DNA of 64,000 nucleotides, taken from the NCBI RefSeq assembly GCF_028641065.1, contig NC_073387.1, positions 26,164,001 to 26,228,000 on the forward strand, read 5' to 3'. The position numbers and the translations under genes were made by a program. Shown here one piece after another: positions 6,921-40,809 of this stretch. How positions within the stretch are numbered: the stretch's first letter is position 1; every line of letters begins with the position of its first letter. The notes under the pieces are model-generated. The model saw only the letters and a program-made list of their open reading frames with translations, made no database searches and was not told the DNA's origin. Source of the stretch: Leucoraja erinacea (lineage: Eukaryota).

Positions 6921-7048
6921 NNNNNNNNNNNNNNNNNNNNNNNNNNNNNNNNNNNNNNNNNNNNNNNNNNNNNNNNNNNNNNNNNNNNNNNNNNNNNNNN
7001 NNNNNNNNNNNNNNNNNNNNNNNNNNNNNNNNNNNNNNNNNNNNNNNN
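6921..7048. other. Assembly gap (128 N)
   Basis: N run; truncates another promoter-like copy (6770-6920). Confidence 1.
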
Positions 7049-11148: not shown

Positions 11149-11284
11149 GTCTGGATGTTCTATTGCTCTATTTGTAATGCTTAATTAAGAAACATGCAAG
11201 TGTAGTTCGGATGAAGATTTGATGTTCAGACTTGGTAGCATGTGTCATAATTTATTAGTAATGGAATTGTGACAACGTAAAGTG

Positions 11285-14532: not shown

Positions 14533-15361
14533 TAACCTCACATTTATCTATATTATACTGCACCTGTCCACTCACTCAACCTGTCCAGGTCACCCTGCTA
14601 CCTCCTAACATTATCTTCACAGCTCACACTGCCACCCAGCTTTGTGTCATCCGCAAACCTGCTAGTGTTGCTCCTAATTCCCTCTTCCAAATCATTAATA
14701 TATATGGTAAACAGTTGCGGCCCCAACACCGAGCCTTGCGGTACTCCACTCGCCCCTGCCTGCCATTCTGAAAAGGACCCGTTCACTCCTACTCTTTGCT
14801 TCCGGTTTGTCAACCAATTTTCTATCCATGTCAACACCCTACCCCCAATACCATGTGCTCTAATTTTGGTCACCAGCCTCCCGTGCGGAACCTTATCAAA
14901 GGCTTTCTGAAAGTCTAGATACACTACATCCACTGGCACCCCTTCATCCATTTTACTTTTCACATCCTCAAAAGATTCCAGAAAATTAGTCAAGCATGAT
15001 TTCCCTTTCATAAATCCATGTTGACTTGGACTAATCCTTTTATTGCTATCCAAATGCCCCATTATTACTTCTTTAATAATTGACTTCAGCATCTTTCCCA
15101 CCACCGGTCGGGCTAACTGGTCTGTAATTCCCTGTTTTCTCTCTTGCTCCTTTCTTGAAAAGTGGGATAACATTAGCTATCCTTCAATCCACAGGAACTG
15201 ATCCTGAATATGTTGAACATTGGAAAATGATCACCAATGCGTCCACTATATCTAGAGCCACCTCCCTGAGGACCCTGGGATGCAGACCATCAGGACCCCC
15301 TTAGATCCTCTGTCCTCCAGTACATCTGGGAGATTGTTTGTGTCATCCTTAGTGAAGGAAG

Positions 15362-16446
15362 TGGGGGTTTTGTATTGATGTGGATAGAGAACTGGCTGGC
15401 AGACAGGAAGCAAAGAGTAGGAGTAAACAGGTCCTTTTCAGAATGGCAGGCAGTGACTAGTGGGGTACCGCAAGGCTCAGTGCTGGGACCCCTGCTATTT
15501 ACAATATATGTTAATGATCTGGATGAGGGAATTGAATGCAACATCTCCAAGTTTGCGGATGACACTAAGCTGGGGGGCAGTGTTAGCTGTGAGGAGGATG
15601 CTAGGAGGCTGCAAGGTGACTTGGATAGGTTGGGTGAGTGGGCAAATGCTTGGCAGATGCAGTATAATGTGGATAAATGTGAGGTTATCCACTTTGGTGG
15701 CAAAAACAGGAAAGTAGACTATTATCTAAATGGTGGCCGATTAGGAAAAGGGGAGATGCAACAAGAACTGGATGTCATGGTACACCAGTCATTGAAAGTA
15801 GGAATGCAGGTGCAGCAGGCAGTGAAGAAAGCAAATGGTATGTTAGCATTCATAGCAAAAGGATTTGAGTATAAGATCAGGGAGGTTCTACTGCAGTTGT
15901 ACAGGGGCTTGGTGAGACCACACCTAGAGTATTGCGTACAGTTTTGGTCTCCTAATCTGAGGAAAGACATTCTTGCCATAGAGGGAGTACAGAGAAGGTT
16001 CACCAGCCTGATTCCTGGGATGGCAGGACTTTCATATGAAGAAAGACTGGATAGACTCGGCTTGTACACGCTAGAATTCAGAAGATTGAGGGGGGATCGT
16101 ATAGAAACTTACAAAATTCTTAAGGGGTTGGACAGGCTAGATGCAGGAAGATTATTCCCGATGTTGGGGAAGTCCAGATCTAGGGGTCACAGTTTAAGGA
16201 TAAGAGGCAAGTCTTTTAGGACCGAGATGAGAAAATCATTTTTTATACAGTGGTGAATCTGTGGAATTCTCTGCCAGAGAAGGTAGTTGAGGCCAGTTCA
16301 TTGGCTATATTTAAGAGGGTGTTAGATGTGGCCCTTGGGGGTATGGAGAGAAGGCAGGTACAGGATACTGAGTTGAATGATCAGCCATGATCATATTTAA
16401 TGGTGGTGCAGGCTCAAAGGGCTGACTGGCCTACTCCTATGTTTCT
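15362..16446 (+). mobile_element. 5'-truncated CR1 LINE (RT C-terminal 293 aa open) nested in the minus-strand CR1
   Basis: ORF 15375-16256 with [13 protein letters not shown] and FADDTK; 3'UTR follows. Confidence 0.95.
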
Positions 16447-18389
16447 AAGACGTATCCAAAGTACCTATTCAACTCTTCTGCCATTTCCTTGTTGCCCATA
16501 ATAATTTCACCCATGTCTGCCTTCAAGGGACCCTCATTTGACTTTGCTACTCTTTTTCCCTTAACATATCTAAATAAGTTTTTACTGTCCTTTATATTCC
16601 TGGCCAGTTTCCCCTCATACTTCCAGCTGGAATTGCCCGTTTTGTTTCTTTCTGTTGTCCTATGAAAGTTTCCCAATCCTCTGGCTTCTGGCTACTCTTT
16701 GCTGCATTATACATCTTTTCTTTTAGTTTTATTCCATCCATAACTTCTCTTGTCAGCAACGGTTGCCTCCTACCCTTAGAATCTTTCTTCCTTTTTGGGA
16801 TGAAATGATCCTGCATGTCCCAGATTATGCCCAGAAATTCCTGACATTACTGTTCAACCGTCATTCCTGCTAGGATCCCTTTCCAGTCTACTTTGGCCAG
16901 CTCCCCTCTCATGCCTTCACAGTCCCCTTTGTTCATCTGCATCACTGCCACTTCCGATTTAACGTTCTCCTTCTCAAATTGCGAATTAAAACTAATCATA
17001 TTATGATCACTACCTCCAAGTTCCTTGGTTACTTTACCTCGAGTTCTCTTATCATATCTGGTTCATTGGACAACAGTAAATCCAGAATTGCCTATTCTCT
17101 GGTCAGCTCCATTCCAAGCTGCTCTAAGAATATCTCGGAGGCATTCTACAAACTCTCTTGGGGTCCTGAACCAACCTGATTTTCCCAGTCTACTTGCATA
17201 TTGAAATCCCCCATCACCACAGTGGCATTACCTTTGTTACATGCCAGTTTTAACTCCTGCTGCAACTTACACCCTACATCCGGACTACTATTTGGGGGCC
17301 TGTAAATAACACCAATTAGTGTCTTCTTGCCTGTACAATTCATCAATTCAATCCACAGTGACTCTACCTCATCAGTCCCTATGTCTTCCCTCGCAAGGGA
17401 CTGAATTCCATCCAACACCAGCAGAGCTACCCCCCCTCCTCTGCCCACCTGCCTGTCCTTTCTATAGGATGTAAGACCCTGAATATTAAGTTCCCAGGCC
17501 CGATCCTCCTGCAGCCATGTCTCAGTAATCCCCACAATGTCATATTTACCAACCTCTAACTGAGATCATCTACTTTACTTCTAATACTTTGCGCATTCAT
17601 ATACAATACTTTTAATTCCTTACGCATCTCACCTTTCGCATCGATACCTATTACACTTGGCCATACTCTCCTATCCCTTTCTGAGCTTCCTTTCTTGTTA
17701 ATTCTGCGGTCATTAACCATCCTTTTCCCTTTAACTCCATCCTCGACTATCCCATTTGACACCCCACCCCCCCTTATTCAGTTTAAAACCACCTGTGTAG
17801 CAGTGGCAAACCTGCCTGCCAGAATGCTGGTCCCCTACCTGTTAAGATGCAATCCGTCCCTTTTGTACAGTTCCCCCTCCCTCCAAAACGGATCCCAGTG
17901 ATCTAAGAATCAAAATCCCTGCCCCCTGCACCAGTTCCTCAGCCACACATTCATGTCCCGTATCACCCTGTTCCTGCTCTCGCCAGCACGAGGAACTGGA
18001 AGTAAACCGGAGATAAAAACCCTGGAGGTCCTGCTTTCAGCATTTTTCCGAGCTGTCTAAAGTCACGCTGCAGAATATTCATCCCCTTCTTTCTGACATT
18101 GTTTGTGCCGACATGCACTACCACTTCCAGCAGTTCATCTTCACCCTTGAGGATTTTCTGCACTCTGTTCGTGACATCCTGGATCCTGGCAACAGGAAGG
18201 CAGCACATCATCCTCGAATCCCATCTGTTGCCACAGAAACCCCTGTCCGTACCTCTCACAATGGAGTCTCCAACTACAACGGCGTTGCCTGACGTTGGCC
18301 TCTTTGGTTTTGGCTCAACAGCCCTTTTTGCTTCGCAAGCCAGTCCGCCGCTCAGTGTGATGACGTCTTCTGTCCCGACAGCTTCTAAG

Positions 18390-18705
18390 TTGGTGGAGTC
18401 CAGAACCAGGGGCTAAAGTTTAAGAATAAGGAGTAAGCCATTTAGAACGGAGATGAGGAAACACTTTTTCTCACAGAGAGTGGTGAGTCCGTGGAATTCT
18501 CTGCCTCAGAGGGCAGTGGACACAGGCTCTCTGGATACTTTCAAGGGAGAGCTAGATAGGGCTCTTAAAAATAGCAGAGTCAGGGGATATGGGGAGAAGG
18601 CAGGAACCGGGGTACTGATTGGGGATGATCAGCCATGATCACATTGAATGGCGGTGCTGGCTCGAAGGGCCGAATGGCCTACTCCTGCACCTATTGTCTA
18701 TTGTC
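18390..18705 (+). mobile_element. CR1 3' end of the outer element
   Basis: MRKHFFSQRVV...; tail ctattgtctattgtc, after which the host module resumes (aattgtattgtagg, compare 10224). Confidence 0.9.
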
Positions 18706-19194
18706 AATTGTATTGTAGGTCATACCATGGATCTGAATGGAAATCCCACAGCACTGCCTGGAACCCCACGAGGTGCTCCTTAGGGAGATAATCCGAGATC
18801 TATCTGAAGGATGAAATCAGTGCAACCGGAGCTCAGAAGTCATCGACTCACTGAAGGCCAGTGGGCTTAACCTGGCCAGGTTGTGGACGTGATCCTGCAC
18901 GCGATCCTGCACGTGATCAGTCCACGGAGAGAATTTGTCCCTTGTCCGAGAAGATGAAGTACATCTACAACCTTCCTTCGTCCAGTACAACTAAAGGTCT
19001 GGTAAGAGCTGCTGAATATTTTACTCCCTTAGTCTGCTGTTTGCATTTATTGGGTCTGGATGTTCTATTTCTTTATTTGTAATGCTTAATTAAGAAACGT
19101 GCAAGTGTAGTTCAGATGAAGAATTGATGTTCAGACTTGGTATCATGTGTCATAATTTATTAGTAAATCATAGTGACAACTTAAAGTGCAGTAA

Positions 19195-20925
19195 CAGAAA
19201 TATTCAAGTTTATCTTCTACTGAGCACCACATCCCTCCTCCAACATATGGATGCTGGTGTGATTAGCATGTTTAATTTTATTATCTCAATAAAAATCATT
19301 ACATACTATATAATACACATATATTGCCATATCTGAGTTACTGTGTGGAGATATGGGGTAACACCTACAAAACCAACCTACAGCCATTATGCACATTACA
19401 AAAAAGAGCAATAAGAATTATCAATAACGTTGGAGATATTGAACATACCAATTTATTATTCTTAAAGTCACATACACTGAAGTTCACTGATCTGGTTAAA
19501 TTTAAGACTCCACAAATCATGTACAAAGCAAGAAATAATTTACTTCCAGGAAATATACAAAAACTGTTCATGGAAAGACAGGGTGGGTATAATTTGAGAG
19601 GGGAACATAATTAAAAAAAACTAAATGTCAGAACAACTTAAAGGTATGTGCATAGCAATCTGTAGGGTGAATTTGTGGAATCGTCTGGAACAGGAGATAA
19701 AACTTAGCACAAAAATGATTCAGTTTAAAAAGATGTACTAAAACACTTTTTTAAAAGGATATTGGGATGAGGATAGGTGATTGTGAGTGGGATATTTGTT
19801 ATACTGATTGTATTGGGAAGGGTGATTATAGGTTGGTGGGTTGTATATATGACTAAGATACTGTATAGTATAAGGATTTTTTCTTTCTTTTTCTTTTTTT
19901 CTCTCTTTTTTTGTAATGGCTATGTAAATATTTGGTTAGTCTATAAAATGTAAATAATTTGGTGTACATATTAACTGCTGGTGTACATATGATGTACATA
20001 TAGCTGCTAAATTTGTATAAGATAATTATAAGCAGTTGAATAAGGGGTGTGAATTAATAAGCTTTAGCTTCTTCCTGCTCCTTTTCGGCCACATACAAAT
20101 TCATTTATTTATAGATATTATTTATGACACTATAAATATCCTTGTTTTGTTTTTTGTATGCAGTTTCACACTTGCTTTTTATTCTTTTATTCTGTTATAA
20201 ATAATTTAAAAAATAAAAATAAAAATGAAATATTTGATGCTGTCATGAAGGCTGGTGGTGATGGTAAAATGACTGTTAAAGATTTCTGGAAATTACTAAT
20301 GGAAATTTATTAGTAATGGAATTGTGACAACGTAAAGTGCAGTAACAGAAATATTCAAGTTTATATTCTACTGAACACTACATCCGTCCAACTTATGGAT
20401 TCAGGTGTGATTAGCATGTTTAATTTTTATTATTTCAACAAAACATTTGATTCTGTCATGAAGGCTAGTGGTGATGATAAAATGACTTAAATATTTCTGG
20501 AAATCATTTAACATTAGAGACTTCATAACGCTTGCTCGCGTTGCATGGGACACAGTTGGTGTGTGAATGGTGTTTGATAAAAACTGTGCCTGCATCTAGT
20601 GCCTGACCTGAGAGGTTTTAGGGTTAGTAATAGTCTATGTAAAACCAGAGGAGAAGGTTGTTTGGCTTAGAAATTAGGTTGTGAAGAGGTGTTGGAAGAT
20701 ATGCAGGAGTTATTAGACTCATTAAAGAGAACTGTCGCCCTAAGATTTGCTTGACCTTAAAAGTGCGGGAACATGAAGCAGAGAATGTAGAGGAGGTTGA
20801 AGTTATTTGAAATCTAACAGCCAAGTGGTTGACAGATACATTCCGTTCAATTGAGAGTGCTTCGGCTATTTTGGTGAAGACGATCCAAATAATGAACATA
20901 ATGCAAAAGTCAGTAGAAATGTGCT
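19195..20925 (+). mobile_element. Tigger transposase remnant in duplicate copy B (locally duplicated, interrupted by a LINE)
   Basis: NIQVYLLLSTTSLLQHMDAGVISMF in ORF 19124-19336; second start at ~20345; colinear with 11285-11865. Confidence 0.8.
19290..20228 (+). mobile_element. L2/Crack/Daphne-type LINE 3' fragment
   Basis: PYLSYCVEIWGNTYKTNL..L..LQKRAIRII...HT..LF; AT-rich 3'UTR with (aaaaat)n tail; absent from copy A. Confidence 0.8.
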
Positions 20926-21299
20926 TTCGGTTCTGAAATCTGTTGCTGGTGCAATGTGGTTCAGGAAACTTGGTTGATGGGAAGATGTTGTTCTTGAACC
21001 TGGGAAGAACGATTGTCGGAGTGGTGAGTGTCTTTAAAGAGGCACCAGCGAGAGCTGCAATTAGCATTTTATTTTGTCTGGATGCCATTTTTCCATTTCC
21101 TTACATACGAACCCCGCAAGTGCAATTCAGACCAGTATTTAATCTTCAGGCTGGGTAGAAAGAGTCATAATTTATCTAGCTGCATTGCAAAGTGAGGTAT
21201 AGGCCTTTGATTGAATTGTTAAAGGGAGCGAGGTTGGCTGTCGAGGGGTGAGAAATGCTGACAATGCCATCCAATAGAGGACTTGGCGGCTGAGGACAG

Positions 21300-24200
21300 G
21301 CACACGGTGGGTACCGGAGAGTAGATAAAGAAGAGGAGCATGTGGCAATGGCAAGTACAACAAATGCTGAAAGTGACACCTGAAAACCAAGGAATCTCTG
21401 GTAATGAAGCCGATCCTAGTCAGAGGACAAACACCCCATCCAAGTCAACACTAGACAACAGGAGGAGGAAATGAATGAGCAGGAAATACATGGGTGGAAC
21501 AGCAGCATCAAAAACTACTACGGATTGTCCCTGAGAAAACCAAGACATCACAACTGACCACAGAAGTAGCTGGAGCTAACGATGATTGAGAACCGGTCTC
21601 CTCTTTGCAGTGTCATTGGATTCACCATCAGGGCAAAGCCAGGGGAAAAATGTCAAATAGCTTGACCAGCTCTGGAAGGACTCTGCTAGCAAGGCAGAAT
21701 CTCCAGGAATGATGCATCTTTGGCTGAAGACGAAGCCATCACCAATTTAACACTGAGCAAAAGAAAGAACCAGTGATGACGAGGAGGAAAGGATCCAGCC
21801 AGGACTAACCAGGAGATCATGAGCATCATAACTGACACTGCTTGTTGGTGGGAAACACAAGAGAAGAAGGAAACACAAGAGAAGTGAGCAACGTGTGGCG
21901 TCCAAGAGTGGACCTGGCAGGTGAAGATGGGCCCGCGGTGGCTTCCGGAGGTTGGATGAAGACGGGCCCTCAGTGGGTGCTGGAAGATGGAGAGAAGACT
22001 AAGAGGAGAAAGTGCCAATGGTAGTTACGACAAATGCAGAACGCAACACTTGAAAACCAAGGGATCTCTGGTAATGAAGCCTATCCTTGTCAGCGGACAG
22101 AACCCACACCCAAATAAACACTGGACAAAATGAGGAAGGAACATACAGGAGCATCATAACCCTACTATGAATTGTCTCTAGGAAAACCAAGGCATCACAA
22201 CTGACGTGAAGTAGCTGGAGCTAACGACGATTGAGAACTATGCAGGTATCTTTGCAGTGTCATTGGATACACCATCAGAGCAAAGCCAGAAGAAATATGT
22301 CAAATAGCCTGACCAGCTCTGGAAGGGCTCTGCTAGCAAGGCAGAGTCTCCAGGAATGATGCATCTTTGCCTGAAGATGGAGCCATCACCAATTCAACAC
22401 TGAATAACATAAAGCACCAATTCAAGAAGGAAAAGAACCAGCCAGGACCAAACAGGAGTTCATGAGCATCATATCTGACACTGCTTGTTGGTGGGGTAAC
22501 ACAAGCGAGGATGTTAAAGGGAGCAAGGTGTGCCGTCCAAGAGAGGATCGGCAGCTGAAGACGGGCCCGCGGTGGGTTCCGGAGGTTGGACGAAGACGGG
22601 TTTCGGTGGGTGCCAGAGGTCGGGGAGAAGACGAAGAGGAGCCTATCCTTGTCACAGAACCCATACTCGTCAACGTTGGATAAAATGAGGAAGGAACATA
22701 TAAGGGACGAACAGGAGCTTCAGAACCCGACTTCAGATTGTCACTGGGAAAACCAAGGCATCACAATTCACCAGAAGTAGCTGGAGCTAACGACGATTGA
22801 GAACCAAGCAGGTATCTTTGCAGTGTCATTGGATTCACCATCAGAAGATGGAGCCATCACTAATTCAACACTGAATAAAGGAAAGCACCAGTGATGACGA
22901 GAAGGAAAACACCCAGCCAGGACCAAACAGGAGTTCATGAGCATCATAACTGACACTGCTTGTTGGTGGGAAACACAAGCCAGGATGTTGAAGAGAGCAA
23001 GGTGTGCCATCCAAGGGAAGATTCAGCAGTTGAAGACGGGCCTGCGTTGGGTGCCGGAGAGAAGATGAAGTGGAACAAAAGGCAAAGAGTTACGCCAAAT
23101 GACCTACTTTCGTCACCTAAGCAAGACGGTTAAAGAGAGAGTTGGGCCCTCAAGGAGCGAGGAAGATGGACGGAGCTGGGCCCTCTTTGGACGAAGATGG
23201 GCCCTCGCTGGAGGTTGGAGAGAAGATGAAGAGGAGCATGTGCCAATGGTAGTTACGACAAATGCAGCACGTGACACCTGAAAGCCAAGGGATCTCTGGT
23301 AATGAAGTTTACCTTTGTCACAGTACAGAACCCACATTGGATAAAATGAGGAGGGAACATACATGGGAGGAACAAGAGCATCGGAACCCTACTACGGATT
23401 GTCATTAGGAAAGCCAAGACATTGCAATTCACCAGAAGTACCTGGAGATAATGACGATTGAGAACCGGTCTCCTCTTTGCAGCGTCATTGGATTCATCAT
23501 CAGGGCAAAGCCAGAAGAAAGATGTCAAATCGTCTGACCAGCTCTGGGAGGACTCTGCTAGCAAGGCAGATTGTCCAGAAATGATGCATCTTTTCCCTTA
23601 AGATGGAGCCATCGCCAATTCAACACTGAAAAAGTGAAAGCACCAGCGATGACAAGGAGGAAAAGATCAAGCCAGGACCAAACAGGAGATCATGAGCATC
23701 ATAACTGACACTGCTCGTATGTGGGAAAAACAAGCGAGGATGTTAAAGAGAGCAAGGTCTGCCGTCCAAGAGAAGATTCGGCAGCTGAAGACGGGCCCGT
23801 GGTGGGTTCCGGAGGATTGACGTAAACAGGCCCGAGGTCAGAGAAAAGACGAAGAGGAGCAAGTGCCAATGGTAGTTACGACAAATGCAGAACGCGACAC
23901 CTGAAAGTCAAGGGATCTCTGGTAATGAAGCCTATCCTTGCCACAGGGCAGAACCCACACCCAAATCAACACTGGACAAAATGAGAAAGGAACCTACAGG
24001 AGCATCAGAACCCTACTATGGATTGCCTCTGAAAAAAACCAAGGCGTCACAACTGACCAGAAGTAGCTGGAGCTAACGACAATTGAGAACGGTCTCTTTG
24101 CAGTGTCATTGGATTCACCATCAGAGCAAAGCCAGAAGAAAGATGTCAAATAGTCTGACCAGCTGTGGAAGGACACTGCTAGCAAGGCAGAATCTCCAAG

Positions 24201-27200
24201 AATGATGCATCTTTGCCTGAAGATGGAGCCATCACCAATTCAATACTGAACAAAAGAAAGCACCAGTGATGACGAGAAGGAAAACACCCAGCCAGGACCA
24301 AACAGGAGTTCATGAGCATCATAACTGACACTGCTTGTTGGTTGGAAACACAAGCGAGGATGTTGAAGAGAGCAGGGTGGAGCCGTCCAAAAGAGGATTC
24401 GGCAGCTGAAGACGAGCCCGTGGTGGGTGCCGGACTTTGGATGAAGACTGGCCCCATGGTGGGCACCAGAGGAGTGACGGGCACACGGTGGGTGCTGGAG
24501 GTTGGACAAAGATGGGCCCTCGGTGGGTGCTGGAGAGAAGAGAAGAAGAGGAGCAAGAGGCAAAGTGTTATGACAAGTAACCTACTACACCCAAGCAATA
24601 CGGTTAAGGAGCGAGGAAGAGAGACGGTGCAGTCCAAGTGAGGACTTGGCAGTTGAAGATGGGCCCACGATGGGTTCCGGAGGTTGGATGAAGATGGGCC
24701 CTTGGTGGGTGCCGGAGGTCAGGGAAAAGACGAAGAGGAGCAAGTGCCAATGGTAGTTACGACAAATGCAAAACGCGACACCTTAAAGCCATTGGATCGC
24801 CGGTAAGGAAGCCTATCCTTGTCATAGGACAGAACCAACACCCAAGTCAACACTGGAGGAAGGAACATGCAATGGAGGAACAGGAGCATCAGAACCCTAC
24901 CACGGATTGTCACTGGGAAAACCAAGGCATCACAACTGACCAAAGGTCTGATGGGCCCCGTGGTGGGTGCCGGAGGGAAGAAGAAGAGCAAGTGGCGAAG
25001 ATAATTATGACAAAAAGACCCCACCTTCGTCACCCAAGCTAGACGGTTAAAGAGAGGGAGCTGGGCCCTCGAGGAGCAAGGAAGAAGGAAGGAGCTGTCC
25101 AAGAGAGGACTCGGCTTCAGGAGGTTGGATGAAGACAGGCCCTCGGTGGGTGTTGGAGAGAAGACGAAGAGGAGCTACTGTCAATTGGGAACCAAGCTGG
25201 ACTCCTCTTTGCAATGTCATTGGATTCACCATCAGGTCAAAGCCTGAAGAAAGATGGTCAGAGCCTGACCAGCTCTGGGAGGACTCTGCTAACAAGGCAG
25301 AATCTCCAGGAATGAGGCATCTTTTTCCCTGAAGTTGGAGCCATTACCAATTCAACACCGAAGAAGTGAAAGCACCAGTGATGACAAGGAGGAAAAGATC
25401 CAGCAGAAACAAACTGGAGATCATGAGCATCATAACTGCAACTGGTTGTTGGTGGGAAACACAATGTTTTTGGTATTTTGCCACAATACAAAGTGAAGAA
25501 TAGGCTGAGCCTGCTTGATCATTCATCAATAGATAATTGTAGATTATGACCATGATAACTTGCAGGCTTGTTCTTGTGTGGTGTGAACATAACATGTTGT
25601 ATTGGTTAATCCATATTATGATTGTGGATGGATACAATATCTCTCCAATAGCAATAATCTGTTTCTTTACCATAGCTCTAATGATAAATCTGGCAGAAGG
25701 TTTTTAGAAGTTTATAATAGTTTGTCTGAGGAACCAGTGATGTGGAACCTAACGGATCCCCTGAAGAAAGTTTTTCTAAACTGCCCCTGCTTTCAACCCA
25801 ATAACCTCTCCTCGATGCAGCATTTGCAAGAAAACAGACACTTGAGTGTAAACTACAACATTACAGGATGTCCAAATTACCAGGTGATGGAATTGAAGCC
25901 CCAGCTAACACCCCTTGCAACGCCAACTCAAGCCACCTCGGGTTGCCAGAAGAAATGTGCAGAAAGCCACACCTGAAAGCCCAGGATTCTGGGAATTAAG
26001 CCTCTACTTGCCAGAGGACACCAAGTCAACACGGATCAAAAGTAGGAGGAAAAGGCCCAGTCATAAACATACAGGAGGGCAGGAGCAATAGAACCCTGAC
26101 ACTTCTCTTCTACAAGGCGGCCACGCTGAGAGTCACTGTCTTGTCTGAGGCGATCCAGTGCATCTGTTGCCCTTCTCGCCCAGTTCAACATAAGTTATGT
26201 ACAAAGCTACCGAAAAGAACTTAATATTTTATTCCTGACAAACAGGGTATTTTAAGAGCCTCTGAAAAGAGATGTAATATTTCACTCTCATTGTCTGTCA
26301 TGTGGATGTCCTGTTTCTCTATTTGTAGTGCTTAGTTGAGAATCATGCACGTCGTTCAGACCAGTATTTGAATTGTGGATCATGCCATAATTTAGTAGTA
26401 ATGGTATTGTGACAATGTATGGTGCTGGAATAGGCATTTGAACCTTCATCAACAGGTGGCAAAAAATGGTAATGATAAAAGGATGATGACCGTAAGACCA
26501 CAATAATCTTGGAGTTTGGGTCTTGTTTGATACGAACATAACTTGGCTGTTGTCGTGACTGATCATGATCCAGGTAGGTGATGGATACAGATTGGCAGTG
26601 TCTTTCCAATTGCTGTAATCTGCTTCTGTGTAGTGTCATTGGATTCATCATCAGGGCAAAGCCAGAAGAAAGATGTCAACTCGACTGACCAGCTCTGGGA
26701 GGACTCTGCTAGCAAGGCAGAATCTCCAGAAATGGTGCATCTATTTCCCTAAAGATGGAGCCATCACCAATTCAACACTGAAGAAAAGAAAGCACCAGTG
26801 ATGACGAGAAGGAAATGATCCAGCCAGGACCAAACAGGAGTTCATGAGCAACATAACTGACATGCTTGTTGGTGGGAAACACAATCGAGGATGTTGAAGA
26901 GAGCAAGGTGTGCCATCCAAGAGAAGATTCAGCAGCTGAAGACGTGCCTGCGGTGGGTGCAGGAGAGAAGATGAAGAGGAATAAGAGGCAAAGAGTTACG
27001 ACAAATGACCTACTTTTGGCACCCAAGCAAGACAGTTAAAGAGAGAGTTGGGCCCTTAAGGAGCGAGGAATATGGACGGAGCTGTCCAAGTGAGGTCTCG
27101 GCAGCTGAAGATGGGCCCACGGTGGCTTCCGGAGGTTGGACGAAGACTGACCCTCGGTGGGTGCCGGAAGATGGAGAGAAGACTAAGAGGAGCAAGTGCC

Positions 27201-30200
27201 AATGGTAGTTACGACAAATGCAGAATGCAACACTTGAAAACCAAGGGATCTCTGGTAATGAAGCCTATCCTTGTCAGCGGACAGAACCCACACCCAAATC
27301 AACACTGGACAAAATGAGGAAGGAACATACCTGAGAGGAACAGGAGCATCATGACCGTACTATGAAATGTCTCTGGGAAAACCAAGGCATCACAACTGAC
27401 CTGAAGTAGCTGGAGCTAACGGCGATTGAGAACCATGCAGGTATCTTGGCAGTGTCATTGGATTCACCATCAGAGCAAAGCCAGAAGAAATATGTCAAAT
27501 AGCCTGACCAGCTCTGGAAGGACTCTGCTAGCAAGGCAGAATCTCCAGGAATGATGCATCTTTGGCTGAAGATGGAGCCATCACCAATTCAACACTGAAT
27601 AACATAAAGCACCAAGACGAGAAGGAAAAGAACCAGCCAGGACCAAACAGGAGTTCATGAGCATCATATCTGACACTGCTTGTTGGTGGGGAAACACAAG
27701 CGAGGATGTTAAAGGGAGCAAGGTGTGCCGTCCAAGAGAGGATCGGCAGCTGAAGACAGGCCTGCGGTGGGTTCCGGAGGTTGGACGAAGACTGGTTTCG
27801 GTGGGTGCCGGAGGTTGGGGAGAAGACGAAGAGGAACAAGTGCCAATGGTAGTAACGTCAAATGCAGAAAGCAACACCTGAAAGCCAAGGGATCTCTGGT
27901 AATGAAGCCTATCCTTGTCACAGAACCCATACTCAAGTCAACGTTGGATAAAGTGAGGAAGGAACATATAGGGGAGGAACAGGAGCTTCAGAACCCGACT
28001 ACAGATTGTCACTGGGAAAACCAAGGCATCACAATTCACCAGAAGTAGCTGGAGCTAACGACGATTGAGAACCAAGCAGGTATCTTTGCAGTTTCATTGG
28101 ATTCACCATCAGAAGATGGAGCCATCACCAATTCAACACTGAATAAAGGAAAGCACCAGTGATGACGAGAAGGAAAACACCCAGCCAGGACCAAACAGGA
28201 GTTCATGAGCATCATAACTGACACTGCTTGTTGGTTGGAAACACAAGCCAGGATGTTGAAGAGAGCAAGGTGTGCCATCCAAGGGAAGATTCAGCAGTTG
28301 AAGACGGGCCTGCGTTGGGTGTCAGAGAGAAGATGAAGTGGAACAAAAGGCAAAGAGTTACGCCAAATGACCTACTTTCGTCACCTAAGCAAGACGGTTA
28401 AAGAGTTGGGCCCTCAAGGAGCGAGGAAGATGGACGGAGCTGGGCCCTCTTTGGACGAAGATGGACCCTCGGTGGGTGCTGGAGGTCAGAGAGAAGATGA
28501 AGAGGAGCAAGTGCCAATGGTAGTAACGACAAATGCAGCACGTGACACCTGAAAGCCAAGGGATCTCTGGTAATGAAGTTTACCTTTGTCACAGTACAGA
28601 ACCCACATTGGATAAAATGAGGAAGGAACATACATGGGAGGAACAAGAGCATCAGAACCCTACTACGGATTGTCACTAGGAAAACCAAGACATTGCAATT
28701 CACCAGAAGTACCTGGAGATAACGATGATTGAGAACCGGTCTCCTCTTTGCAGCGTCATTGGATTCATCATCAGGGCAAAGCTGGAAGAAAGATGTGAAC
28801 TCGACTGACCAGCTCTGGGAGGACTCTGCTAGCAAGGCAGAATGTCCAGGAATGGTGCATCTATTTCCCTAAAGATGGAGCCATCACCAATTCAACACTG
28901 AAGAAAAGAAAACACCAGTGATGACGAGAAGGAAAGGATCCAGCCAGGACCAAACAGGAGTTCATGAGCAACATAACTGACACTGCTTGTTGGTGGGAAA
29001 CACAATCGAGGATGTTGAAGAGAGCAAGGTGTGCCATCCAAAGAGAAGATTCAGCAGCTGAAGACGTGCCTGCAGTGGGTGCCGGAGAGACGATGAAGAG
29101 GAACAATAGGCAAAGAGTTACGACAAATGACCTACTTTTGGCACCCAAGCAAGACAGTTAAAGAGCGAGTTGGGCCCTCAAGGAGCGAGGAATATGGACG
29201 GAGCCGTCCTAGTGAGGTGTCGGCAGCTGAAGATGGGCCCACGGTGGCTTCCTGAGGTTGGACAAAGATGGGCCCTTGGTGGGTGCTGGAGGTCGGAGAG
29301 AAGATGAAGAGGAACAAGTGCCAATGGCAGTTACGACAAATACAGAATGCGACACCTGAAAGCCAAGGGATCTCTGGTAATGAAGCCTATACTTGTCAGC
29401 GGACAGAACCCACACCCAAATCAACACTGGACAAAATGAGGAAGGAACATACAGGAGAGGAACAGGAGCATCATAACCCTACTATAAATTGTCTCTGGGA
29501 AAACCAAGGCATCACAACTGACCTGAAGTAGCTGGAGCTAACGACGATTGAGAACCATGCAGGTATCTTTGCAGTGTCATTGGATTCACCATCAGAGCAA
29601 AGCCACAAGAAATATGTCAAATAACCTGACCAGCTCTGGAAGGACTCTGCTAGCAAGGCAGAGTCTCCAGGAATGATGCATCATTGCCTGAAGATGGAGC
29701 CATCACCAATTCAACACTGAAGAAGTGAAAGCACCAGTGATGACAAGGAGGAAAAGATCAAGCCAGGACCAAACAGATCATGAGCATCATAACTGACACT
29801 GCTCGTATGTGGGAAACACAAGCGAGGATGTTAAAGAGAGCAAGGTGTGCTGTCGAAGAGAAGACTCGGCAACTGAAGATGGGCCCTCGGGTGCCGGACG
29901 TTGGACGAAGACGGGCCCACGATGGGTATCCGGAGAGAAGAAGAAGAAGACGAGGAGCAAGTGGTAAAGTGTTATGGCAAATGACCTACTTTCGTCACCC
30001 AAGCAAGATGGTTAAGGAGCCAGTAAGATGGATGGTGCCGTCCAAGTGAGGACTTGGCAGCTGAATACGGGCCCGCGATGGGTTCTGGAATTTGGATGAA
30101 GATGAGCCCTTGGTGGGTGCCGGAGGTCATGGAGAAGATGAAGAGCAGCAAGTGCCAATGGTAGTTACGCCAAATGCAGAAAGCAACACCTGAAAGGCAA

Positions 30201-33200
30201 GGAATCTCTGGAAATGAAGCCTATCACAGAACCCACACTCGTCAACACTGGATAAAACGAGGAAGGATCATATAGGGGAGGAACATGAACTTCAGAACAC
30301 TACTACGGATTGTCACTGGGAAAACCAAGGCATCACAATTCACCAGAAGTAGCTGGAGCTAAAGACAATTGAGAACTGGTTTTCTCTTTGCAGCGTCATT
30401 GGATTCATCATCAGGGTAAAGCCAGAAGAATGATGTCAAATCGACTGACCAGCTCTGGGAGGACTCTGCTAGCAAGGCAGATTCTCCAGAAATGGTGCAT
30501 CTATTTCCCTAAAGACGGAGCCATCAGCAATTCAACACATCACTGGAGGGAAAGCGCCAGTGATGACGAGAAGGAAAAGATCCAGCCAGGACCAAACAGG
30601 AGTTCATGGGCATCATAACTGACACTGCTTGTTGGTTGGATACACAAGTGAGGATGTTAAAGAGAGCAAGGTGTGCCGTCCAAGAGAGGATTCGGCAGCT
30701 GAAGATGGGCCCGCGGTGTGAGCCAGAGGTTGGTCGAAGACGGGCCCTCGGTGGGTGCCGGAGGTCGGAGAGAAGACGAAGAGCAGCAAGTGCCAATGGT
30801 AGTTATGACAAATGCAGAACGTGACACCTGAAAATCAAGAGATCTCTGGTGATGAAGCCAAACCTTGTCACAGGACAGAACCCACACCCAAATCAACACT
30901 GACCAAAATGAGGAAGGAACCTGCAGGAGAGGAAGAGGAGCATCAGAACCCTACTATGGATTGTCTCTGGGGAAAACCCAAGTCATCACAACTGACCAGA
31001 AGTAGCTGGAGATAACGACGATTGAGAACCGATCTCTTTGCAGTGTCTTTGGATTCACCATCAGGGCAAAGCCAGAAGAAATATGTCAAATAGCCTGTCA
31101 AGCTATGGGAGAACTCTGCTAGCAAGGCAGAATCTCCAGGAATTATGCATCTTTGCCTGAAGATGGAGCCATCACCAATTCAACACTGAACAAAAGAAGC
31201 ACCAGTGATGGCGAGAAGGAAAGGATCCAGCCAGGACCAAACAGTAGTTCATGAGCATCATAACTGACTCTGCTTGTTGGTGGGAAACACAAGCGAGGAT
31301 GTTGAAGAGAGCAAAGTGAGCCATCCAAGATAAGATTCAGCAGCTGAAGACGAGCCTGCAGTGGGTTCCGGAGAGAAGATGAAGAGGAACAAGAGGCAAA
31401 GAGTTACGACAAGTGACCTACTTTCGGTACCCAAGCAAGACGGTTAAAGAGAGAGTTGGGCCCTCAAGGAGCGAGGAATATGGACGGAGCCGTCCAAGTG
31501 AGATCTCGGCAGTTGAAGATGGGCCCACGGTGGGTTCCAGAGGTTGGACAAAGACGGGCCCTCAGTTTGTGCCGGAGGTCGGAGAGAAGACGAAGAGGAG
31601 CAAGTGCCAATGGTAGTTACGACAAATGCAAAACGCGACACATAAAAGCCAATGGATCGCTGGCAAGGAAGCCTATCCTTGTCAGCGGACAGAACCAACA
31701 CCCAAGTCAACACTGGAGGAAGGAACATGCAATGGAGGAACAGGAGCATCAGAACCCTACCACGGATTGTCACTGGGAAAACCAAGGCATCACAACTGAC
31801 CAAAGGTCTGATGGGCCCCGTGGTGGGTGCCGGAGGGAAGAAGAAGAGCAAGTGGCGAAGATAATTATGACAAATGACCCCACCTTCGTCACCCAAGCTA
31901 GACGGTTAAAGAGGGGGAGCTGGGCCCTCGAGGAGCAAGGAAGAAGGACGGAGCTGTCCAAGAGAGGACTCGGCAGCTTCGGGAGGTTGGACGAAGACAG
32001 GCCCTCGGTGGGTGTTGGAGAGAAGATGAAGAGGAGCTACCGTCAATTGGGAACCAAACTGGACTCCTCTTTGCAGTTTCATTGGATTCACCATCAGGTC
32101 AAAGCCAGAAGAAAGATGGTCAGAGCCTGACCAGCTCTGGGAGGACTCGGCTAGCAAGGCAGAATCTCCAGGAATGAGGCATCTTTTTCCCTGAAGATGG
32201 AGCCATTACCAATTCAACCCGGAAGAAGTCAAAGCACCAGTGATGACAAGGAGGAAAAGATCCAGCCACGACCAAACGGGAGATCATGAGCATCATAACT
32301 GCCGCTGGTTGTTGGTGGGAAGCACATGTGAGGATGTTAAAGAGTGTGTGTCGTCCAAGAGGATATGGCAACTGAAGACAGGCCCGCGGTGGGCGCCGGA
32401 GGTTGGATGAAGACGGACCCTCGGTGGCTGCCAGAGAGAAGACGAAGAGGAGCAAGTGCCAATGGTAGTTACAACAAATGCAGAACGCGATACGTGAAAG
32501 CCAAGGGATCTCTGGTAATGAAGCCTATCTTTGTGACAGGACAGAACCAACACCCAAGTCAACACTGGACAAAATGAAGAAGGAACATGCAGGGGAGGAT
32601 CAGGAGCATCAGAACCCTACCACAAATTGTCTCTGGGTAAACCACGGCATCACAACTGACCCAAAGTAGCTGGAGCTACCGATTATTGAGAACTAAGCTG
32701 GTCTCTTTGCAGTGTCATTGGCAAAGCCAGAAGAAAGATGTCAAATAGCCTGACCAGCTCTGGAACGACTCTGCTAGCAAGGCAGAATCTCCAGGAATGT
32801 TGCATGTTTTTGACTGAAGATGGAGTCTTCACCAATTCAACACTGATCAAAAGAAAACACATGGTAAGCAATAACAAATAAAGAAAAATAATTTAGTTAG
32901 TATCTTGGCATATATTGGAGTTAATATTCATTACAGCAATCTGATGGATATCTTGTCTCAAACATTATGTTGCTACTAGTTATAGGGAAGTAGACCATGA
33001 TAATACAAATAAACAATCTTTGTGTGGCAGTCTGTTGTGGTTTAGAAATAATGTTTTGCTGGTGCAATGTGGTTCAAGAACTTAATGGGAAGATGCTGTT
33101 CTTGAACCTTGAAAGACCAGTTCTTGGGCTGCTGAGATTCTTTTGAGGCACCAAAAGTGCTGCAATTTGCATTTATTTAGTCTGGATGTCTTATTACTTT

Positions 33201-35410
33201 ATTTGCTTACATATGTAGCCTTCAAGTGGAGTTCAGACCAGCATTTCACCTTCAGGCTGGTTAGAATGTTTTTGGTATTTTGCCACAATACAAAGTGAGG
33301 AATAGGCTGAGCCTGCTTGATCATTCATCAATAGATAATCGTAGATTATGACCATGATAACTTGCAGGCTTGTTCTTGTGTGATGTGAACATAACATGTT
33401 GTATTGGTTAATCCATATTATGATTGTGGATGGATACAATATCTCTCCAATAGCTATAATCTGTTTCTTTACCATAGCTCTAATGATAAATCTGGCAGAA
33501 GGTTTTTAGAAGTTTATAATAGTTTGTCTGAGGAACCAGTGACGTGGAACGTAACAGATCCCCTGAAGAAACTTTTTCTAAACAGCCCCTGTTTTCAACC
33601 CAATAACCTCTCCTCGATGCAGCACTTGCAAGAAAACAGTCGCTCGAGTGTTATTATTACAGGATGTCCAAATTACCAGGTGATGGAAGTGAAGCCCTAC
33701 TTCACACACCTTGCAATACCAAATCAAGCCACCTCGGGTTGCCAGAAGGAATGTGCAGAAAGCCACACCTGAAAGCCCAGGAGTCTGGGAATGAAGCCTC
33801 TACTTGCCAGAGGACACCAAGTCAACACGGATCAAAATTAGGAGGAAAAGGCCCAGCCATGAACATACAGGAGGGCAGGAGCAATAGAACCCTGACACTT
33901 CTCTTCTACAAGGTGTCCATGCTGAGAGTCACTGTCTTGTCTGAGGAGATCCGGTGCATCTGTAACCCTCTCTCGCCCAGTCCAACGTAAGGTGTGTACA
34001 AAGCTACCGAAAAGAGCTTAATATTTTATTCCTGACAAACAGGGTATTTTAAGAGCCTCTGAGAAGAGATGTAATATTTCACTCCCATAGTCTGTCATGT
34101 GGATGTCCTGTTTCTCTATTTGTAGTGCTTAGTTGAGAATCATGCACGGCGTTCAGACCAGTATTTGAATTGTGGATCATGCCATTATTTATTAGTAATG
34201 GTATTGTGACAATGTACGGTGCTGGAATAGGCATTTGAACCTTTGTCAATAGGTGGCAAAAAATGTTAATGATAAAAGGATGATGACCTTAAGACTACAA
34301 TAATCTTGGAGTTTGGTTCTTGTTTGATACGAACATAACTTGGCTGTTGTCGTGACTGATCATGCTACAGGTAAGGGATGGATGCAGATTGGCAGTGTCT
34401 TTCCAATTGCTGTAATCCGCTTCTTTGTAGTGTCATTGGATTCATCATCAGGGAAAGCCAGAAGAAAGATGTCAACTCGACTGACCAGCTCTGGGAGGAC
34501 TCTGCTAGCAAGGCAGAATCTCCAGGAATGGTGCATCTATTTCCCTAAAGATGGAGCCATCACCAATTCAACACTGAACAAAAAAAGCACCAGTGATGAC
34601 GAGAAGGAAAGGATCCAGCCAGGACCAAACAGGAGTTCATGAGCAACATAACTGATACTGCTTGTTGGTGGGAAGCACAATCGAGGATGTTGAAGAGAGC
34701 AAGGTGTGCCGTCCAAGAGAAGATTCAGCAACTGAAGACGTGCCTGCGGTGGGTTCCGGAGAGAAGATGAAGAGGAGCAAGAGGCAAAGTGTTATGACAA
34801 ATAACCTACTTTCGTGACCCAAGCAAGGGTTAAGGAGCGAGGAAGACGGATGGTGCCGTCCAAGTGAGGACTTGGCAGCTGAAGATGGGCCTGCGATGGG
34901 TGCCGGAGGTCAGGGAGAAGATGAAGAGGAGCAAGTGCCAATGGTAGTTACGTCCAATGTAGAAAGTAACACCTGAACGCCAAGGGATCTCTGGTAATGA
35001 AGCCTATCCTTGTCACAGAACCCACACCCAAATCAACACTGCACAAAATGAGGAAGGAACATGCAGGAGAGGAACTGGAGCATCAGAACCCTACCATGCA
35101 ATGTCTCTGGGAAAACCAAGGCATCACAATTGACCAGAAGTAGCTGGAGTTAACGACGATTGAGAACCAAGCTTGTCCTCTTTGCAGTGTCATTAGATTC
35201 ACCATTAGGGCAAAGCCAGAAGAAAGATGTCAAATAGCCTGACCAGCTATGTAAGAACTCTGCTAGCAAGGCAGAATCTCCAGGAATGATGCATCTTTGC
35301 CTGAAGATGGAGCCATCACCAATTCAACACTGAACAAATGAAAGCACCAGTGATGACGAGAAGTAAAACACCCAGCCAGGACCAAACAGGAGTTCATGAG
35401 CATCATAACC
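21300..35410. repeat. Complex tandem array, about 17 units of ~620-830 bp with higher-order repeats
   Basis: Landmark ctctgctagcaaggcaga, or a close variant, recurs near 21681, 22328, 23553, 24174, 25284, 26704, 27523, 28824, 29645, 30464, 31114, 32146, 32770, 34500 and 35258. Two further units (22845, 28115) carry the same internal deletion. Confidence 0.95.
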
Positions 35411-36564
35411 GACAATGGCTGGGCTAGTAAATCTGGCAGAACAATAGGTTTGTAATAGTTTGAAAAACTAGAGTGATTGGGACCCATTTAGAAAGTCCTC
35501 TAAATTGCCACTGACTTGAAGCCTCTAACGTTTACCAGTTCCAGCACTTGCAAGATAACACATCCTTATGTTAATTTCAATTTATCACATGGAAATGCCT
35601 TGAAGCAAGATGTCAAATGGACAGACATGCTGTGCTGGGAGAACTCTGCTAGCAAGACAGAAAATCTTTGGTAATGAAGCTTCTACTTGCCAGAGGCTGG
35701 ATCTCCCACCAAGTCAACACTGGTCAAGGGAAAGGAAAAGGGATGACAAGGAGGACGGCAGGGCCCAGCCACGAACGTGGACGGGAGCAAAAGAAGCATC
35801 ACCCTGACACCGCTTGTCGTCGGGAAAGCCAAGGCGTCAGAACAGGCCATAAAGTTGCTGGAAATAATGTCAGTGGAGAACCAGCCCGATCTCTGCTGTG
35901 CAATACCATTGGATGCACCACAAGGGAATGGCCAGAGAGAGGCAAGATGTCAGGTGTCCTGATGGACTCCAGCAGGACTCTGCAAGCAAGACGGAGAAAT
36001 GCTGAGGTTCACAGAAAGAAAAGAAGCATGATGAAGAACAGCAATCATTTATTGATAAAACAATGTGTGTGGGCCACTCATTTGTATGAACTGAATGACC
36101 CTGCGTGGGAGAACCGCTGAGAACTTGGGGGGACCACAAATGGAATGTGTTAAATGGTTTGTGTAAAATGGAATACATGTAACTTTGGCGGCACCATTTA
36201 TGTGGTGACTCTTTGCATACCTTGGGTCTGAAGAATATCAGTGACTTGTCACATGTGACAAAGTATCATTCATTCAAGTATCTGGAAATATTGGCAATAG
36301 AGAGCTAGGGTGGTCTCTGTGCAATAGCATTGGATGCTTTACTCTGCTAGTAAGACAGAATTGCTTGGTATCTGATTTTTCTATTTGTAGTACTTAGTTA
36401 CAAAGCACGGGAGTGTTATATAGATGTGGAGTTGTTCCTCAGACTGGGGAGGACATTAGTAATGCGTTTGTGACAATGTACGGTGCAGCAGCAATATGCC
36501 TTTGAGACTGCTTGATCAAGCATTTAAAGGTGGTAGAAGTTGGTGATGATCATAACTCTTGAAG

Positions 36565-37555: not shown

Positions 37556-37729
37556 TAAGTCTCCCTACGTCCCTCTGCAGTGTTGCAAAGAAATCCTGCA
37601 AAAAAAAAGTAAACCAAATGACATTGTCGTCATATTTCTCAAACATCGCGAGGTAATCTGACATTTGGTAGCAACAAACCTGCTGTCGACATCTGCTATC
37701 TCCAGATCTCAGCCAACTGCTGCCTGAAC

Positions 37730-38026
37730 CAAGTGCGGAACGGTAGAGTTGCTGCCTTACAGCACAAGAGACCCGGGTGCGATCCTGACTACGGGTGCTC
37801 TCTATGGAATTTTTTTGTTCTCCCCTTGACCTGCGTCGGTTTTCTCTGAGATCTTCGGTTAACTCCCACACTCAAGGTGTACAGGTTTGTATGTTAATTG
37901 GGAATGGTCAAAATTATAAATTGCTCCTACTGTACGTGATAGTGTTAATGTGCGGGGATCGCTGTACGGTATAGACGCGGTGAGCCAAAGGGCCGGTTTT
38001 TGCACTGTATCTCTAAACTAAACTAA
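37730..38026 (+). mobile_element. tRNA-derived V-SINE (HE1-like)
   Basis: A/B-box-like head (cggtagagttgctgccttacagc...ccgggtgcgatcctg), central gttctcccc..gacctgcgt..gtttt core, (taaac)n tail. Confidence 0.8.
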
Positions 38027-38653
38027 TTCACTGACTTTCTTGTGCCCTTGCCCCTGTCTCTGGCTCCGATTACACCAACGGATATGGAGGACATCCACTC
38101 TCAGCAACCTTCCCCCCTCATCCCCCCTCCTATGCTGTCTTGGGCAAGCAGAGGCCACCAGTTGTCTATGTAAGTGTTAACATTTACATTCAAAAATAGA
38201 TTTTCGATTAAAAAATATGTTTAATTTAGATGCCTTTACTGTTGATTTTGTTTTTTCTGTATGAAAGATTGATGGGCCCATGCTCTCAGATCTTGTCCAT
38301 CGTGGACCTTCTGTGGACCAATGAGCCTAACCTGGCCAATCTGCGCACTGACAGTTGCCTTCTTGCCCGAAGAGATCCAGAGCATTTCCAATGTTCCCTC
38401 GCCATTCCAACAAAGCCTCTGGTAAGAGCTACCAAAAAGAGTATTTTATTCCTCACTGACAGTCTTTTTAAAAATTACCAGAAAAAAACATACTCCCCAA
38501 GTCTGCCATTTACATGTATTTTGTCTTGATATCCTATTTCTCTATTTGTAGTGCTTCGTAACAAAAGATGCAAAGTTTGGGCTGAAAATTGAGCCTCAGG
38601 CTGGGTAGAAAGTTTCACACAACTTAACACAACATGGTTTATGTGAAACAATT

Positions 38654-38753
38654 NNNNNNNNNNNNNNNNNNNNNNNNNNNNNNNNNNNNNNNNNNNNNNN
38701 NNNNNNNNNNNNNNNNNNNNNNNNNNNNNNNNNNNNNNNNNNNNNNNNNNNNN
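38654..38753. other. Assembly gap (100 N)
   Basis: N run at the right edge of the mosaic locus. Confidence 1.
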
Positions 38754-39424
38754 ACTGTTGCTGCTGCAGCCCCTTCCCCTGGGGTGTGTGCATAAGTAAT
38801 AACAGCAGAATTTGGCCATTCGGCCCATCATGTCTCACGGGTCGACGGTCGATAGTTGACGAGAGCGTGGAGGGTCGCCAAGAGGGGAGGGAAGGACAAT
38901 GGAGGACGCGGCGTGGGGGACTGCCGGGGGGGCTGGGGGGGGGGGGGGGGGGGGGGGGGGGGAGGGGGGGAGAAGAACAATAGACATTGGGGAGGAAGAG
39001 GAAGGGAGAACAAAGGACAATGGGGACCTGGCGTGGGAGGACCGCTGTGAGGGGGGAGGAACAAAATGAGCCGGCGTACTTTGTAACTTTGCCAGTGTCA
39101 TAAGTGGCTGCTATTTGTATAAATTAGGAAAATAAGCAAAGAATTTTACTGTCTTGTGACATGACAATAAAGTGTTCCATTCCGTTCAAAGTCTACTCTG
39201 CCATTCAATTATGGCTGATCTATCTTTCCCATTTAACCCAATTCTCCTCCCTTCTTCCCATAACCCCTGTCACTCTGACTCGAGCACCAGCTATGCCACA
39301 GGGGGTGGAAACCAAGACCCCTCGATGATACCTTGTGCCCGCCATGCCCTTTTACACAGTTTCCAAATGTTTATGATGAACACAGCCATGAATAAGCAGC
39401 TGTAAAACATTTAAAAATAAATGG

Positions 39425-39675
39425 ACAGCACAATAGCCCAATTGGTAGGGTTGCTGCTTTACAGTGCCAGAGACCCAGGTTTGATCCAGGCTATGGGTGC
39501 TGTCTACGGAGTTTGTACGTTCTCACTGTGATCACATGAGTTTTCTCCAGGTGCTCCAGTTTTCTCCCACATCCCAAACACGTGCAGATTTGTAGGTTAA
39601 TTGGGTTCGGTAAATATTCCCTAGTGTGTAGGATAGAACTAGTGTACGGGTAATACGGACTAGTGTGCCGTACAC
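39425..39675 (+). mobile_element. V-SINE (HE1-like)
   Basis: Homologous to 37730-38026. Confidence 0.75.
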
Positions 39676-40809
39676 ATATTGGAGTACACATTGCACTTTT
39701 ATATTATCTGACAAAATGGGTAATCCAATGGGTTGGCTCGCTCCACTTTCTGAAGCAGGAAAGTTGTGAAAAGGACTAGTGACTTGTTGCTGTGTCTGTC
39801 AGGTGTGGCTCAGCAGGGAGTGCTCTTGTTTGTGGGTTATAAGACTACAGGTTCACATCCCACTCCAGAGACTTTCCTAATAAACAAATTATAGAAAATT
39901 ATAGTATATAGACAACTGCTTCAATGGGGCAAAAGTGGGTTAGGGGCCAGAGAGTTTGGATATTAACACAAGGACCTTATGAGGAGGCATAGCGGATCCC
40001 GTGGCATGAATTTTCAGCGGACATTATCTCCCATTACTGTGGCCAATATTTATCTTTCAATCCGTACCATCGAATCTGATAGCTATTGTCATATTGCTAT
40101 GAGCTTCCTGTGCACAAGGTAGGTATTTCCTAACTTAAAACAGGGAGATGCAACAAAACTTCCACCACCAATCACACATTCCCTCCCTTTGCCTTTCAGT
40201 ATTTTGAACATCGATCCCTTCTCAACACTCTGGTCCACTCTCCCACTCTCCTGAATTCTATTTCCCATTATAGAAACAAGAAACTGCAGATGCTGGTGTA
40301 CAAAAAAAGACACAAAGTGCTGGATTAACTCAGCAGTTCAAGCACCATCCCTGGTGACTATGGATGTGAAGTTTTGGGTCAGGACTGTTCTTCAGATTGA
40401 TGTGACCCTTCTTCGGTCTGAAGAAGGATCCCAACCTGAATCATAGCCTTCATATTTTCAACATTCCTCCCCTCCCCACTTTCTCTGCAATTGAGACTAA
40501 TTTGCATTCTCTTTTTCTCAGTTCTAATAAAGTCAAATCAATTTGAGTTTATTCTCTTATGCACAAGTACAGTGTGGCACAGTTGCAATGACAATCTCGT
40601 TTGAAGCAGTGTCAGAGGCATAGGCTCAATTCACATATATGATTTAAATTATACTTAAATTATCCAACATGGCGAAAACAGAAAGACTGCAAAAAACATG
40701 ATATTTTGCAAAATACCACAAGAAACAAAAGTAAGTCCATAGTCGTGCAAGTGGTGTCCATCGTATTCGGTTTCCAAGTTAGGATTAGGTTTGTCCCAGA
40801 AACCGACAA

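Follow-up and report, generated by a model that had tools for sequence, protein, structure and literature searches.

A purine-rich, non-coding tandem array lies at positions 21285 to 35410 (+ strand) of a 64,000-nucleotide stretch of the skate Leucoraja erinacea (contig NC_073387.1, positions 26,164,001 to 26,228,000), which we refer to as the window. Our analysis indicates that this array is probably passenger DNA in a block of 45-55 kb, which was likely moved in trans by a hAT-type transposase that acted on the outer ends of two small, non-autonomous flanking elements. The block is most likely a giant composite transposon, or macrotransposon, that was later eroded by deletions and further copied by ordinary duplication. 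This reading is based on the fixed order of the modules at 19 loci, on termini with perfect target-site duplications in two copies and on a left tip shared by six. A preliminary description of the window had presented the array as a stand-alone macrosatellite and had missed the much larger mobile block of which it appears to be the cargo.

A search of the 2.19-Gb genome with the array unit returned 99 matches from 40 of 246 candidates, on many chromosomes. The family was then defined with unit, flank and promoter probes, and all loci were fetched at least in part. It consists of 19 loci on 13 chromosome-scale contigs, plus one small unplaced contig (loci are named here by contig and position in Mb). 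The fetched DNA contains 421 unit motifs, and the 100 exact unit-word matches listed, out of 142, all fall at family loci. This is not the distribution of a single-locus macrosatellite, whose units would be found at one or two loci. Allowing for losses and local repeats, the modules have the same order at all loci: upstream arm, promoter-like cassettes, a 35-bp repeat, two spacer modules, the array and the downstream arm. Moreover, 1016 of 1016 module hits have the same orientation. Within two loci the core is itself repeated in tandem, with three sub-copies at C2:76.50-76.57 Mb and two at C3:38.98-39.05 Mb. The unplaced contig C1263 scores the same as the C11:11.87 Mb locus in several searches and may represent its second haplotype.

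Two copies are whole. The C6 copy (65802142-65857728, 55,587 bp) is bordered on both sides by the 8-bp duplication GTGTCAGA, and the C22 copy (22325509-22280073, 45,437 bp) by GTGCCAAC; both duplications are perfect. The terminal inverted repeats are ~14 bp long (CAGGGCCGGATTTA), and those of C6 enclose the promoters, the array and the downstream arm. Several copies share a start word, and comparison of the junctions identified it as the inverted terminus of a small element common in this genome. At C6 this left element is complete, and each of its own two right tips is followed by 8 bases of another sequence, with mismatches to the left 8-mer at 7 and at 8 of the 8 positions. Since its own right tips lack the 8-mer, the partner of the duplication is the far end of the block. 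Host DNA at C6 is hence enclosed by two directly oriented elements whose outer ends share one duplication, as is the case in macrotransposons. As in multicopy Pack-TIRs (elements with host sequence between their terminal inverted repeats), host DNA lies between the ends of the giant copies, which have two distinct duplications. Three solo elements (0.9, 1.6 and 2.5 kb) have identical termini, and their 8-bp duplications contain 1, 2 and 0 mismatches, respectively. Duplications of this length are thus found in both giant copies (perfect) and in all three solo elements (0-2 mismatches), and together with the terminus they match what we take to be the hAT pattern.

The left terminus is present at 6 of the 19 loci (C6, C22, C9, C4:36.83, C2:33.36 and C4:63.98), and the outer 1.5-kb flanks of these six are unrelated, except for one piece of a long interspersed nuclear element (LINE). 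At the density of the small element, the chance of 6 left termini among 19 loci is roughly 5e-7. Not counted was C5:38.17, where a small element without a matching duplication lies inside the left arm; at C2:76.5 the left element survives as right-tip remnants only. The small element itself is represented by at least 726 exact terminus words and 2551 candidates, and its copies are 87-90% alike. Most copies of the giant block radiate in a star-like tree at 91-95% identity, which is consistent with their having spread late in the same burst. The C6 and C22 copies share 20.5 kb collinearly and each contains ~34 kb of family sequence; the mobile unit probably measured 30-40 kb at the time of the move. 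In the last 1.7 kb of the C6 cargo (C6:65854869-65856604), likeness to other copies drops to 72-78%, against 84-95% in the neighbouring sequence.

The history that we propose would begin with an old locus that contained a dead SMIM3-like gene and repeat modules as well as a CpG-island promoter and a short first exon. Two elements in direct orientation would have come to flank this locus. The resulting composite would have spread to many chromosomes during the burst of the small element, as the star-like tree suggests. Internal and end deletions would have trimmed most copies, including that of the window, and ordinary segmental duplication would have added others. Finally, unequal exchange within each locus may have grown the arrays and their higher-order repeats, so that array DNA stays young and poor in insertions.

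A number of observations weigh against this history. Both ends are kept at only 2 of the 19 loci. In the DNA fetched, which extends 5-25 kb past the shared sequence and has unfetched gaps in two loci, the left terminus is missing at 13 loci and the right one at 17, and no right terminus matches the left 8-mers of C9, C4:36.83, C2:33.36 and C4:63.98. The junctions between cargo and terminus vary among copies on both sides, so a single ancestral composite requires later deletions, and the right-hand elements used by C6 and C22 may not be the same. Plain duplication made some of the copies (the C11 pair, the pair of C3 with C5, and C6 with C7), and C6 and C7 share DNA outside both termini. The copy in the window lacks both ends and branches separately, in a clade with the C34 copy, so its own arrival by transposition is only putative. 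Moreover, the hAT label is founded on the terminus and the length of the duplication, not on a transposase: no transposase domain was detected in 62 frames of the terminal and solo elements (of 107 frames listed) or in the cargo, whose long frames derive only from inserted retro- and Tc1 elements. Neither an autonomous partner, which was not searched for, nor an empty site was identified, and no related genome was compared.

In the window, unit-motif counts and alignment confirm the ~17 co-oriented units of the preliminary description. They are ~0.5-1.1 kb long, and the best-conserved unit motif occurs in 17 copies between 21726 and 35303. The array is indeed rich in purines, which make up a fraction of 0.615 of its + strand (inserts excluded) versus 0.495 in the remaining window. 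The four higher-order duplications that had been proposed align with identities of 96.9, 95.9, 94.8 and 94.9%, and the deletion word said to be shared by the first pair occurs exactly twice, at 22839 and 28107. This first pair is longer than had been given, 21900-23814 (+) aligning with 27084-29087 at 95.2% identity. Mis-assembly, or a unit that is a known dispersed satellite without expression, had been named as findings that would speak against the preliminary description. This applies in part, as the unit is in fact dispersed across the genome. An assembly duplicate is argued against by the 95-97% identity of the higher-order copies. The old internal duplication of the unit is seen in all four units that were tested (59-66% identity, z of 4.5-6.2 versus 300 shuffles). 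The array is, however, not unbroken as had been thought. Two inserts on the + strand, at 25463-26624 and 32871-34421 (1.2 and 1.55 kb), do not consist of units and represent further modules of the larger block rather than transposons. The former contains spacer modules and an old partial unit and is duplicated at 33265-34421; the left part of the latter resembles 20937-21204. An old, diverged unit, 63-73% alike to the array, follows at 35580-35995 (+).

Protein coding in the unit was considered and rejected. No reading frame stays open across units, as had been noted before, and for the longest one (237 codons) no homologue was found. Pfam has no match for 13 of 14 frames, the 14th being an unrelated immunoglobulin (Ig) exon. 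In addition, coding constraint is absent in 149 unit copies, in which 69 of 397 indels are a multiple of 3 and the codon positions are flat. A structured RNA was likewise rejected, as Rfam gives no match in the window and the array has no notable inverted repeat.

The window array is free of transposable elements (TEs), as had been stated: dispersed-repeat matches amount to 0 of its 14.1 kb. The flanks had been called saturated with such repeats, which does not apply to 2900-12650 of the left flank, where they make up only 0.6%. The lack of TEs in the array is not special. TE-like inserts are found in arrays at 9 of 16 loci (47 segments, which by eye correspond to ~20 events in 300 kb), and the arrays of C5 and C9 hold large retrotransposon pieces. 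At this rate, the probability that 14 kb remain empty is 0.39, and selection against insertions, one of two causes that had been suggested, is not supported. The other, rapid local turnover, is. The nearest relative of 117 of 149 units lies in their own locus, from which it follows that the arrays grew after dispersal, and the arrays extend over 4.4-44 kb (16 loci). The downstream arm, with 10 private insertions in 42 kb, has ~3.5 times the insertion rate of the arrays, as expected if array DNA was recently amplified. In the C9 and C2:33.40 arrays, small TE-like pieces (80 bp and 435 bp) were incorporated into the repeating unit and have multiplied together with it.

Upstream of the array, the block carries a promoter-like cassette (4100-4390, +; 38 copies aligned from 10 of 13 loci), with partial copies at ~5080-5280 and ~9680-9900. 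We take its motifs to be forkhead-like, E2F-like, CCAAT, GC and TATA-like words. All 41 exact genome matches of the cassette motif fall at family loci (control: 0), and the cassette is found at 18 of the 19 loci, up to eightfold per locus. A splice-donor word follows after ~60 bases in 13 of 19 copies, not including that of the window. T-rich repeats of 17-18 bp at 3300-7400 (+; CpG observed/expected 1.05-1.48) resemble a repeated first-exon end with splice donor and recall the stuttering described for chicken genes in part of PMC12954441. The CpG transition ratio is 1.0 in the cassette, 0.3 and 1.7 just upstream, and 3.9 in the array, the CpGs of which decay; across the array and four other modules it ranges from 3.4 to 6.3, and two more modules have 1.7 and 2.4. 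The cassette has no excess of CpG transitions, which suggests a promoter that is unmethylated in the germline. Its overall divergence of 8.5%, compared with 4.4-8.4% in the flanks, does not indicate better conservation. A second CpG-rich promoter-like patch, at window positions 40-190, is common to few copies (C1, C6 and C7).

RNA was surveyed in four runs from unspecified tissues, with reads placed at 88% likeness. Cover of the window array is thin (depth 1.5-3x). In the two runs with signal that look stranded, it comes mostly from the purine strand, with summed depths of 63.7 vs 1.0 in run X13 and 30.8 vs 4.9 in X5. Of the other two runs, X6 seems to be unstranded and X10 has almost no signal over the array. 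Most array reads are at most 90-95% alike and carry paralog alleles that fit many loci, and the signal is therefore one of the family. The cassette and first exon are silent in all four runs (depth 0-0.14, no splice joint), with the proviso that paralog reads may fail to align.

How else could the block have reached its present distribution? It could be a core duplicon that was spread by replication-based segmental duplication, its end transposons being bystanders or marking breakpoint-prone sites. This would account for the ragged ends, for flanks common to subsets of copies and for duplications that include DNA beyond the termini. The small element is also common, with the 726 exact terminus words and 2551 candidates given above, and primate LCR16a is described, in part of PMC7419210, as spreading together with flanking DNA. 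In its pure form, a segmental-duplication family without termini, this explanation was suggested by the ragged ends of the pairwise maps and overturned by the inverted terminus shared at the junctions. Repair-based duplication is not expected to give breakpoints exactly at the tips in six unrelated flanks, nor two perfect and different 8-bp duplications, and the core shows no expressed gene family under selection. We consider the core-duplicon explanation unlikely. Still far less probable is the original proposal that selection keeps insertions out of a macrosatellite confined to one locus, which we regard as hardly tenable. It fits the absence of dispersed repeats from the window array and the ~3.5 times higher insertion rate of the downstream arm, but not the 19 loci, the inserts in 9 of 16 arrays, some of them amplified along with the unit, or the finding that array DNA is younger than its flanks.

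Other explanations concern what the block carries. Passenger cargo is the likeliest role of the array. It is a tentative alternative, compatible with transposition and in our view improbable, that the cargo is a selected germline transcription unit, a long non-coding RNA or a locus like a cluster of PIWI-interacting RNAs (piRNAs), in which the cassette drives RNA through the array. Selection for germline RNA would explain why promoter and array stayed together, and it would agree with the CpG transitions at the cassette, which point to an unmethylated germline state, with the amplification of the cassette at 18 of 19 loci and with the purine-strand reads in X13 and X5. Moreover, piRNA loci overlap duplication hotspots in amniotes, according to part of PMC9925758. 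However, cassette and first exon are silent in 4 of 4 runs, the cassette is overall no better conserved than its flanks, and a depth of 1.5-3x for more than 400 units could stem from intronic read-through at one locus. It is very unlikely that the family is one of SMIM3-like genes and the array incidental. An 86-codon SMIM3-like frame lies on the minus strand of the downstream arm in 18 other copies of the block, all at family loci, and is intact in 11 of them; its Pfam match is weak (E 2e-4, below cut-off), and 1 stop was observed where 5.5 were expected at flank rates. In contrast, 7 of the 18 frames are broken, no database protein was found, and the ratio of non-synonymous to synonymous substitutions is ~0.96 overall and 0.79 (p 0.42) in the homologous part, which marks the frame as evolving neutrally as far as its sequence tells. 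There is also a separate SMIM3-family gene elsewhere on C11 that scores above cut-off.

This gene (C11:22.968 Mb, - strand) is GC-rich, lies 3.2 Mb from the window and is 42% alike to the frame of the block over 36 residues. In the search for a parental locus, promoter and SMIM3-like probes matched family loci only, and the C11 SMIM3-family locus shares only dispersed repeats with the block. An exon-like stretch at ~38050-38255 with distant matches at six other loci was rejected as a progenitor gene; it is an old dispersed repeat.

The part of the shared block within the window, 1-40152 (+), is collinear with other loci and starts ~7150 bases to the left of the window. Its breakpoints show no target-site duplication and no inverted ends, and there is no terminus within ~23 kb of either; this copy has lost both ends. 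It includes the 35-bp tandem repeat of the family (8030-8467, +), a spacer module with a donor-like word at its end (10222-10560, +; second copy at 18704-19061) and the spacer module that precedes arrays (20304-21208, +; 91% copy at 11249-12154). A nest of CR1-like LINE pieces at 12660-18700 (strand not assigned) is partly common to the C34 copy. The downstream arm common to most copies occupies 37640-40152 (+), and the window reads N where the SMIM3-like relic sits elsewhere. At 10560-11150 there is a small inverted-repeat insertion that is private to the window among the copies compared, and RNA from its other copies is abundant. Outside the block, an Ig V-set exon (60038-60673, +; Pfam E 3e-15) reads like what we presume to be a TIM/HAVCR-family domain, and a young RTE-like LINE (57280-58930, -) with a 527-codon frame is 98% alike to a copy at C11:11.86 Mb.

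The closest parallels to the block are the Ac/Ds macrotransposons and composite insertions of maize, in which, as described in part of PMC9910405, the outer hAT-type ends of two elements move the enclosed host DNA with 8-bp duplications and the cargo can include regulatory DNA. Those are laboratory alleles of 10-28 kb with an active Ac, whereas the skate block is natural, fixed, 45-56 kb long, present on many chromosomes and without a transposase inside. Animal multicopy Pack-TIRs such as Pack-hAT-N8_XT also have host DNA between hAT-type ends, distinct duplications and ends lost over time (PMC8277862, in part). In that screen (Tan et al., 2021), which may have had a size limit, the median cargo is 224 bp with four multicopy cases; the skate block is ~200-fold larger and built from two elements, and its parental locus was not found. 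The foldback-flanked Ising element of Drosophila likewise involves a very large piece of host DNA that moved together with a DNA transposon on either side; it belongs to another superfamily and to an insect laboratory stock, and section 12 of the same review (PMC6431247) gives no comparable non-viral vertebrate case. Teratorn is likewise a giant (41-182 kb) multicopy DNA transposon of fish (PMC6431247, PMC10175614, each in part). However, it is a piggyBac element fused to a herpesvirus with genes of its own (PMC10175614), while the skate block is host-derived, non-coding and non-autonomous, has no herpesvirus genes or piggyBac transposase among its Pfam hits and uses 8-bp targets, not TTAA. 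Finally, primate core duplicons of the LCR16a/NPIP type resemble it in that their core is present at many loci while the flanks vary. They differ in carrying expressed genes under positive selection, no such gene having been found in the skate block, and transposon ends are not reported for them in the part of PMC7419210 concerned. An open-access literature search found no paper on the skate family, which is not proof of absence.

The array itself is a case of ordinary turnover; the surprise is its vehicle, since a cargo of 45-55 kb is far larger than usual for cut-and-paste elements in animals. Interspersed duplications of tens of kb in vertebrates are usually attributed to repair or recombination. 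The transposon model accounts for the presence of one satellite and one promoter on 13 chromosomes, and the C6 and C22 copies provide exact sites for an empty-site comparison in related skates. We would venture, as speculation with rather long chances, that the vehicle was a non-viral hAT macrotransposon of ~50 kb, that it took a promoter unmethylated in the germline and a self-amplifying purine-rich array to 19 sites, and that it thereby seeded a dispersed family of piRNA-cluster-like germline RNA loci. If so, transposase-driven jumps would be one origin of vertebrate core-duplicon families. Our results suggest that a multi-chromosome duplication family can be the product of an ordinary family of cut-and-paste elements, and that it resembles a core duplicon after its ends have eroded.

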